Assembly: GCA_964016885.1 (NCBI GenBank)
Contig: OZ024740.1
Coordinates: forward strand, 210,304,001-210,368,000
Origin: Eledone cirrhosa
Lineage: Eukaryota
Length of the DNA stretch: 64,000 nucleotides
Direction: 5' to 3'
Shown here piece after piece: positions 48,847 to 49,562 of the stretch (position 1 is its first letter; each line of letters starts with the position of its first letter). The translations under genes and the position numbers were made by a program. Below the pieces are notes generated by a model that did not search any database, was not told the DNA's origin, and saw only the letters and a program-made list of their open reading frames with translations.

Positions 48847-48967
48847 GTATGTATATATATATATATATATATATATGTACGTATATATATATATGTATGT
48901 AACAATTTTGAATAGCGCCAGTTCATAATTTGAATTCGGGAATTTTATATTCTTCGAGTGAAAAGAT

Positions 48968-49049
48968 CCTTCTGACGAGATGTTTTCTTTGCAACGGATG
49001 CCGTATGGACTCCGTTTATTTTTGAGACTCGAAACCGATTCGGTAAACG
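48968..49049 (+). ncRNA. Type I HHR, extended stem II
   Basis: CCTT-CTGACGA-GA..AACGGA/TCCGTT..GACTC-GAAA-CCGATTCGG-TA-AACG. Confidence 0.8.
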
Positions 49050-49450
49050 TAACTACAGTAAGTAAAGTTAATTTTTTAAAATTTATTTTGAAACTTTTTC
49101 TTATTTGCTAAACCTTGAGTATATTTGTTCTGGCTCGTTAATTTATTAACCTGCCATTGAACAACATTTGCATATGGTTGGACAATAAATGTGTCCCTTA
49201 GCGCCTTGTGCGTGTAGGAACATATACTCTATTATTACTACCTCCTCTTGGTTGAGAAAAAAATTTGGTCGTTCTGACTGCTGCTAGTTATAGCGGTAGC
49301 CGACTGACCTCCCTGCCTCTGTCTCTATCTTCACACTCGGCCCTTGAAAAAATTGATTCCACTTCATTTACTCTCATCTCGGGAACAATTTTGAATAGCG
49401 CCAGTTCGTAATTTGAATTCTGGAATTTTATATTCTTCGAGTGAAAAGAT

Positions 49451-49532
49451 CCCTCTGACGAGAGTTTTTCTTTGCAACGGATGCCGTATGGACTCCGTTT
49501 GTTTTTGAGACTCGAAACCGATTCGGTAAAGG
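49451..49532 (+). ncRNA. Type I HHR, second tandem copy
   Basis: CCCT-CTGACGA-GAGT..ACTC-GAAA-CCGATTCGG-TA-AAGG. Confidence 0.8.
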
Positions 49533-49562
49533 TAAACTTTTTCTTATTTGCTAAACCTTGAT

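Follow-up and report, generated by a model that had tools for sequence, protein, structure and literature searches.

In metazoans, non-LTR retrozymes are known from mussel, coral and axolotl (Cervera and de la Pena, 2020, PMC7229834). The sections of that paper on which we draw describe repeats of 150-450 bp and RNAs of ~170-400 nt whose circular form was demonstrated, with one type I hammerhead ribozyme per unit, a short palindromic stem III, low GC content and no ORF, occurring as dimers to multimers in thousands of copies. They also propose that tandem cDNA is made from the circles by the reverse transcriptase (RT) of a Penelope-like element (PLE) or a LINE, naming PLEs as a candidate. In vertebrates, retrozymes derived from PLE pLTRs form monomers, dimers and multimers of units of 51-972 bp, co-occur with PLEs and are tied to them by pLTR homology, while their arrays are ascribed to local amplification and unequal crossover (Li, Clavereau and Pollet, 2026, bioRxiv 10.64898/2026.07.22.740005); in its main text this preprint argues for a PLE origin of non-LTR retrozymes, with the mechanism still to be elucidated. 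EN+ PLEs (Poseidon PAc, PMC11167929; Neptune and Naiad, PMC8557442) leave 5'-truncated partial tandems with an inverted 5' copy and a tail of 30-40 bp at one end (PMC8557442), in AT-rich or (TA)n targets, and their RT starts at two internal sites and extends both strands of the DNA (PMC11167929), according to the consulted parts of these papers. A circle as the template of PLEs, whose hammerheads are minimal, has been proposed and called tentative (PMC4209133, section on PLE hammerheads). Plant LTR retrozymes, in the summaries given by PMC7229834 and the 2026 preprint, have type III hammerheads, true LTRs, PBS/PPT, 4-bp TSDs and a Gypsy partner.

The locus analysed here lies in a TA-rich genome of 3.0 Gb with a repeat landscape that looks octopod-like, and the non-coding family to which it belongs is, by comparison with published main texts, a new family of a known class, the non-LTR retrozymes. 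With the metazoan retrozymes it shares the single type I hammerhead per unit, the dimers to multimers, the thousands of copies, the low GC content, the lack of an ORF and the short palindromic stem III, but its unit is 483 nt long, its helix II region measures 52 nt and no TSD is visible in its TA targets; its circle is deduced from DNA, and its two fixed ends and head-to-head arms are features that we did not see described in the consulted sections of PMC7229834. The series of monomers, dimers and multimers and the co-occurrence with PLEs recall the vertebrate retrozymes, whose range of unit lengths includes 483 nt; here, however, the tie to PLEs lies in the insertion signature, no parent pLTR having been found in the loci fetched, and the young arrays look like the products of single insertions. 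The insertion traits of EN+ PLEs recur, from the partial tandems and (TA)n targets to the two starts and the extension of both strands, whereas the family has no ORF, a 117-nt tail, arrays of up to 10 units and a full-size hammerhead. Like a plant LTR retrozyme, the window copy carries two direct-repeat hammerheads around a non-coding body (the window being the whole 64-kb stretch of DNA analysed), but the topology is type I, there is no fixed 5' end and the number of units varies. Neither the family nor head-to-head retrozyme arrays joining its two ends were reported in the literature that we searched, largely papers open without subscription, and the words 'ribozyme' and 'retrozyme' are absent from the main text of an octopus repeat annotation of 2026 (PMC13282606). 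We consider it likely that the window copy is an old, decayed daughter of this 483-nt family, and that a PLE protein copies the self-cleaved, re-ligated RNA circle of the family into TA microsatellites.

Layout and decay of the copy in the window

The insertion occupies 48901..49561 on the + strand, as do all of its parts, and amounts to 1.37 units of the 483-nt element, or 1.45 units before a 40-nt deletion. It begins with a 5' partial repeat (48901..49118) that is 5'-truncated at 48901 and has an internal copy of End 1, the first of the family's two fixed 3' ends, at 49118. The 117-nt 'tail' between the two fixed ends follows (49119..49235), its last position corresponding to End 2, at which this copy does not terminate. 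The 3' repeat (49384..49561) lost 40 nt after 49533 and stops at End 1 (49561), where it meets a TA tract via TA-like microhomology. The (TA)n target tracts extend over 48740..48900 on the 5' side and 49562..49855 on the 3' side, with approximate bounds and no strand assigned, and the direct repeat 48901-49050 / 49384-49533 shows 7 differences in 149 compared positions.

An earlier note on this DNA had described two hammerhead cores in direct repeat, 483 nt apart and with predicted cuts after 49045 and 49528, and both lie exactly there. The type I hammerhead HHR-1 (48968..49049) is composed of stem I (48968-48971), CUGACGA (48972-48978), helix II (48979-49030), GAAA (49031-49034), stem III (49035-49043) and GUA, with the predicted cut after 49045; HHR-2 (49451..49532), with its predicted cut after 49528, has the same parts shifted by 483 nt. 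Both cores thus show the type I order of CUGANGA, GAAA, NUH and three helices. Rfam at its gathering score gave 0 matches across the whole 64-kb window, for which the long helix II may be the reason.

From cut to cut, the predicted 483-nt monomer (49046..49528) is 38% GC and non-coding: its longest ATG ORFs encode 37 aa (+) and 29 aa (-), and no RT or GIY-YIG ORF lies between the repeats, in keeping with the absence of an ORF and the TA tracts at both flanks that had been noted before. A promoter scan, run with a bacterial model, and a tRNA scan returned nothing useful. Set against 40 shuffles per sequence, the circular fold of the monomer was the more stable (z = -3.9), and those of three further copies lay between -3.0 and -5.4. 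The fold of the monomer includes a predicted long hairpin just 5' of End 1 (49057..49109), the 5' arm of which was taken out of the 3' repeat by the 40-nt deletion. Unit positions 461-480, within the hairpin region, have zero inherited variants, and the hairpin is a candidate recognition element for an RT.

Could this copy still be a live source that cleaves itself twice to yield a 483-nt circle, as the earlier note had it for 48901-49562? Both catalytic cores are intact, and HHR-2 retains 11/12 pairs overall. A hybrid of the HHR-1 5' half and the HHR-2 cut strand would, by its predicted pairing, restore stem I at 49528. Since the fold cost of HHR-2 over its minimum (4.9 kcal/mol, against 13.0 for HHR-1) is inside the range of five family copies (0.4-9.7), HHR-2 may keep some activity. 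Release of a monomer, however, requires both cuts. Hammerheads generally cleave poorly when an open stem I of 4 bp contains a mismatch. Changes private to this copy in helix II (48981-48982) and in stem I (49048) leave HHR-1 with 3/4 pairs in stem I and 3/5 in stem II, while a private C.A mismatch at 49453 leaves stem I of HHR-2 at 3/4. The hybrid would not help at 49045, where stem I has 3/4 pairs alone and 2/4 in the hybrid. Neither hammerhead is fully paired, as opposed to 130/203 in the family, and both members were fully paired in 23/36 tandem pairs with intact cores. Each of the two stem haplotypes in the window was seen once among the 203 hammerheads, and at 48982, 49048 and 49453 the pairing base accounts for most of the depth of public contigs (one sample, kind unrecorded). 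The copy is also 5% away from its closest relative among 40 scored, and the bacterial-model scan identified no promoter. Because of the private stem-breaking changes in both ribozymes and the 40 nt missing from the 3' repeat, a circle from this locus is unlikely, and we regard the live-source reading as distinctly improbable. Given the need for both cuts, the window copy is probably a dead daughter, old, 5'-truncated and with its self-cleavage lost. The unpaired helices lower the claim of activity for this copy, not for the family.

Ribozyme conservation and insertion signature of the family

An exact hammerhead pattern had 2,281 matches genome-wide versus 0 for a reversed control, so the hammerheads are not due to chance. 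A search with the DNA brought up 2,658 first-look candidates, 40 of which were scored, and the best other copy among these is 95% identical; the family is dispersed, with matches on many contigs, its subfamilies differ by up to ~20% in sequence, and the units in arrays are 483-485 nt long with one type I hammerhead each. Across 435 aligned pieces, 0/12 core positions carry an inherited variant (minor base at least 5%) versus 128/461 other positions. Stem pairing holds in 95.4% of cells for 70 aligned hammerheads (68 distinct, drawn from the shuffled list of 203 found) versus 22-57% in slid controls. Double changes, on both sides of a pair, occur at 4 pairs in a number not above the shuffle control (361/500), and relatedness among the sequences inflates other pairing measures. 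In all 203 hammerheads, pair 2 of stem I is U-A in 156 and C-G in 36, and pair 1 of helix II is G-C in 152 and A-U in 38. Judged from these alignments, the family ribozyme is under selection, its cores and stems conserved with compensatory changes. The sequence features of a non-LTR retrozyme are all present, namely tandem units of a few hundred bp, non-coding content, 38% GC and high copy number, while true LTRs are absent, as judged by 5' ends that spread across the whole unit. The retrozyme layout that the earlier note had recognised in the window therefore holds for the family, as a non-LTR retrozyme.

Insertions of the family stop at two places. End 1 lies 73 nt beyond the cut and is used by 25/30 of the best loci, its exact junction with TA occurring 981 times; End 2 lies 117 nt beyond End 1 (190 nt past the cut), and both are TA-like within the element itself. 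Of the first 100 End 1 places on contig C1, the window itself and two further matches that fell inside loci already taken were set aside, and the remaining 97 loci were fetched. One of these had no central arm and another was a duplicate; without them, 95 loci remained, with 94 central End 1 arms. The 5' ends of these arms vary (median length 312 nt), and 22/94 arms exceed one unit. A second, inverted arm is present in 31/95 loci. When these loci were combined with 63 read-through loci, 46/50 head-to-head pairs joined an End 1 to an End 2, four had an unclassified end and none had two ends alike; likewise, all 7 two-armed arrays pair one End 1 with one End 2 type end. Among single-arm copies, 42/62 have a TA-like 5' flank. 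The marks of insertion match those of PLEs: a partial tandem, 5' truncation, an inverted arm, a one-sided tail and an AT-rich target. The End 1 and read-through patterns miss the young subfamily owing to one changed base, so the length statistics cover mainly older subfamilies on contig C1. In the older subfamilies, the distribution of End 1 arm lengths is nearly flat to about 600 nt and then falls, whereas arms of the young subfamily attain 10 units; the contrast may stem from biased sampling or from altered processivity.

This signature raises the possibility that the element is a terminal-repeat remnant of an autonomous PLE, whose repeats would normally flank a long ORF. Its type of hammerhead and two-end layout are common to the Neptune-like PLEs in the window, the fragments of which have the same two ends, ~90 nt apart by eye, and PLE ORF pieces, detected as protein matches, lie within 1.5 kb of 38/220 family loci (some fetched twice; nine were read). 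On the other hand, the 63 read-through loci continue past End 1 in non-coding unit, and the ORFs examined stand behind TA tracts, beside other terminal repeats or at one-off junctions. In the copies examined the repeats do not flank a long coding body, an arrangement that the earlier note had named as telling against its reading. No autonomous PLE with the family's terminal repeat (pLTR homology) was found in the loci fetched, and a profile search of them returned related non-coding families and no ORF-bearing parent. The likeness of End 2 to a Neptune-like terminus is weak (shuffle fractions 0.007-0.087 in four comparisons). Origin as a PLE remnant is highly improbable in our estimate.

Two loci join the element to PLE sequence with no TA tract between: in L028 (/ L122) a Neptune-like 3' region is fused to the element's 5' end, and in L121 (/ L004) the element lies 5' of a truncated PLE of another type. 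These junctions may be template switches, or nested insertions with deletion; if they are template switches, they show PLE RTs reading RNA of the family. The L028 PLE was rejected as a parent, having its own long 3' UTR, hammerhead and terminal repeat, and the family's 483-nt unit in 1/30 of its loci. The non-family arm of L059, followed as a clue to a parent, led to another short family and a decayed Neptune-like copy (L096), and L220, L197, L246, L242, L029 and L227 proved to be neighbours with no direct junction.

Other elements were seen along the way. A Neptune-like PLE is represented in the window by the 3' part of its ORF at 46117-47496 (-) and by terminal-repeat pieces with a minimal hammerhead at 45700-46113 and 47640-48190, one of them an inverted pair. 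Two PLE insertions lie head to head at 33700-37250; they include hammerheads at 33888, 34710, 35097 and 37083, the end of an ORF at 35349-35714 and two ends ~90 nt apart. Since Pfam gave 0 families for two window PLE fragments, the label draws on motifs: we take them to be Neptune-like from their Cys-rich linker and C-terminal GIY-YIG. By motifs, 26167-26922 (+), 37856-38654 (-) and 59033-59392 (+) are presumably a Tc1/mariner-like transposase ORF and LINE-like RT fragments. An abundant short family (L092-L120) has a long-helix-II hammerhead and two ends, with a terminus weakly like End 2; within it, L096 has a decayed Neptune-like ORF upstream. Further non-coding hammerhead families appear, by eye and as profile matches with weak E-values, at ~1350-2330 (-) and ~7150-7720 in the window and at L254:412-547, L051:2509-2581, L113:2150-2720 and L054:1780-2700. 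Their apparent body plan comprises a long helix II, a hairpin, two TA-like ends and head-to-head arms, and together these families suggest that related retrozymes have radiated within the genome.

Evidence on the template

A major question is which form of the RNA is copied. Of 94 End 1 arms, 82 run past the first cut site and 16 past the second, while two at each site stop within 8 nt of the cut; 5' ends in this set do not accumulate at the cut site (16 observed near it versus 13.3 expected, P = 0.27). Repeats within one copy are 3.9% apart versus 11.4-12.0% between loci (66 pairs), with no effect of 5' or 3' position, and on these divergences they are sisters. Minor alleles were shared by both repeats in 740 cases and confined to a single repeat in 240, the latter counting against this reading. 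The arms of a head-to-head pair likewise diverge less from each other than from the median other arm in 35/36 pairs (overlap of at least 60 nt), with mean divergences of 3.9% between paired arms versus 9.2% to other arms; the exception is L036, whose arms are 11.3% apart.

The young subfamily, in which stem III is short and palindromic and the arrays are dispersed, offers a sharper view. We fetched 12 of its arrays (L292-L303; for example G000:C1:149203500-149212500), picked for their long appearance. Their arms reach 10.1 units, and one insertion totals 12 units; all 12 terminate in TA tracts at End 1 or near End 2. Divergence within the same arm is 0-0.4% in 11/12 arrays and 1.5% in one. In 7/11 arrays with at least three full units, there are alleles found in every unit and missing from the other arrays, and in L294, L302 and L303 such alleles extend over both inverted arms. 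Of 11 array-specific alleles, nine occur in no more than two further pieces of the family, and the remaining two are frequent in other subfamilies. Across the arrays, 84/84 hammerhead junctions are seamless and have the same sequence. These young arrays look as though each was made in one insertion; another source of near-identical units would be homogenisation during assembly.

Since tandem arrays exist, linear multimeric transcripts are also possible templates. The same family and PLE machinery could then use an uncleaved multimeric transcript that the hammerhead merely trims, with arrays growing and homogenising as DNA. Transcription of a whole array is conceivable given arrays of up to 10 units, and the drop in older-subfamily arm lengths beyond about 700 nt fits a linear template. 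PLE RTs are not known to have RNase H, and copying round a circle would therefore need strand displacement. In vitro, moreover, the PAc element takes unprocessed RNA, and insertion by the PLE tested did not need hammerhead cleavage, as given in the consulted part of PMC11167929. Copying a linear template with 5' truncation, however, makes copies shorter at every generation (the older set has a median arm of 312 nt), yet long arrays keep appearing; array-wide alleles over inverted arms require a single-unit bottleneck; and trimming by the 5' hammerhead would heap 5' ends at the cut site, an accumulation that is not observed. A linear multimer as template is in our view unlikely.

A cleaved linear monomer on which the RT repeatedly jumps from the precise 5' end to the 3' end would mimic a circle, and would account for the selection on cleavage, the resetting of unit length and the sister repeats with no ligase involved; the fusions to PLE ORFs at L028 and L121 suggest that templates are switched at times. 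It would, on the other hand, take up to ten error-free jumps to build an array in which every junction is seamless, there is no excess of stops at the cut site, and switching between molecules would disrupt array-wide alleles. We judge jumping on a monomer to be very unlikely.

Taken together, selection on the ribozyme for cleavage, a template unbroken at the cut site and the passage of new alleles through a single unit favour a re-ligated RNA circle as the template, as read from the genomic copies. Of the earlier note's proposal that reverse transcription round a circle gives a ~1.4-mer, the copying of a circle survives as the best reading of the genomic copies, while the 1.4-mer turns out to be no fixed layout: it is one 5'-truncated product in a family whose copies span <0.1 to 10 units. 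As a ligated circle has the same sequence as a genomic tandem, given the seamless array junctions, junction reads and the products of divergent-primer RT-PCR also arise from linear multimers. On the other side of the balance, only 1/9 frog retrozyme dimers self-cleaved in vitro according to the main text of the 2026 preprint (bioRxiv 10.64898/2026.07.22.740005).

A proposed model of circle copying and its meaning

In the model that we propose, copies with at least two intact hammerheads would be transcribed and cut to the 483-nt monomer, possibly helped by pairing of two hammerheads, for which the short, palindromic stem III of the young subfamily leaves room. By analogy with other retrozymes, the monomer would be closed by a host ligase. 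A PLE protein with RT and GIY-YIG domains would then nick (TA)n DNA and prime at a fixed site, End 1 (73 nt past the cut) or End 2 (190 nt), a mechanism read from the pattern of ends. Synthesis would cross the sealed cut site and halt variably, matching the observed span of copy lengths, and with both DNA strands primed one arm would start from End 1 and the other from End 2. The window copy would derive from a single End 1 event of ~700 nt and have decayed afterwards.

More tentatively, and with rather more doubt than confidence, we suggest that both active sites of a dimeric Penelope-like protein read one RNA circle at once, extending opposite DNA strands from End 1 and End 2 with strand displacement, which would yield head-to-head arrays of up to 12 units per event.

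As a decayed member, the copy in the window is unremarkable; the family leaves an unusually clear footprint of how it probably moves. The mobility of animal retrozymes and the circular origin of PLE tandems are still proposals in the consulted parts of the papers cited. In this family the substrate is short and defined, both start sites have been mapped, the target is known and alleles can be traced through the young arrays, and a direct test of the circle model is therefore possible, with the young arrays L292-L303 as the best material for experiments. Should the reading with a dimeric protein be right, the arrays would preserve a record of rolling-circle reverse transcription in the genome, and the partial tandems, tails and inversions of PLEs would all be explained by one process.
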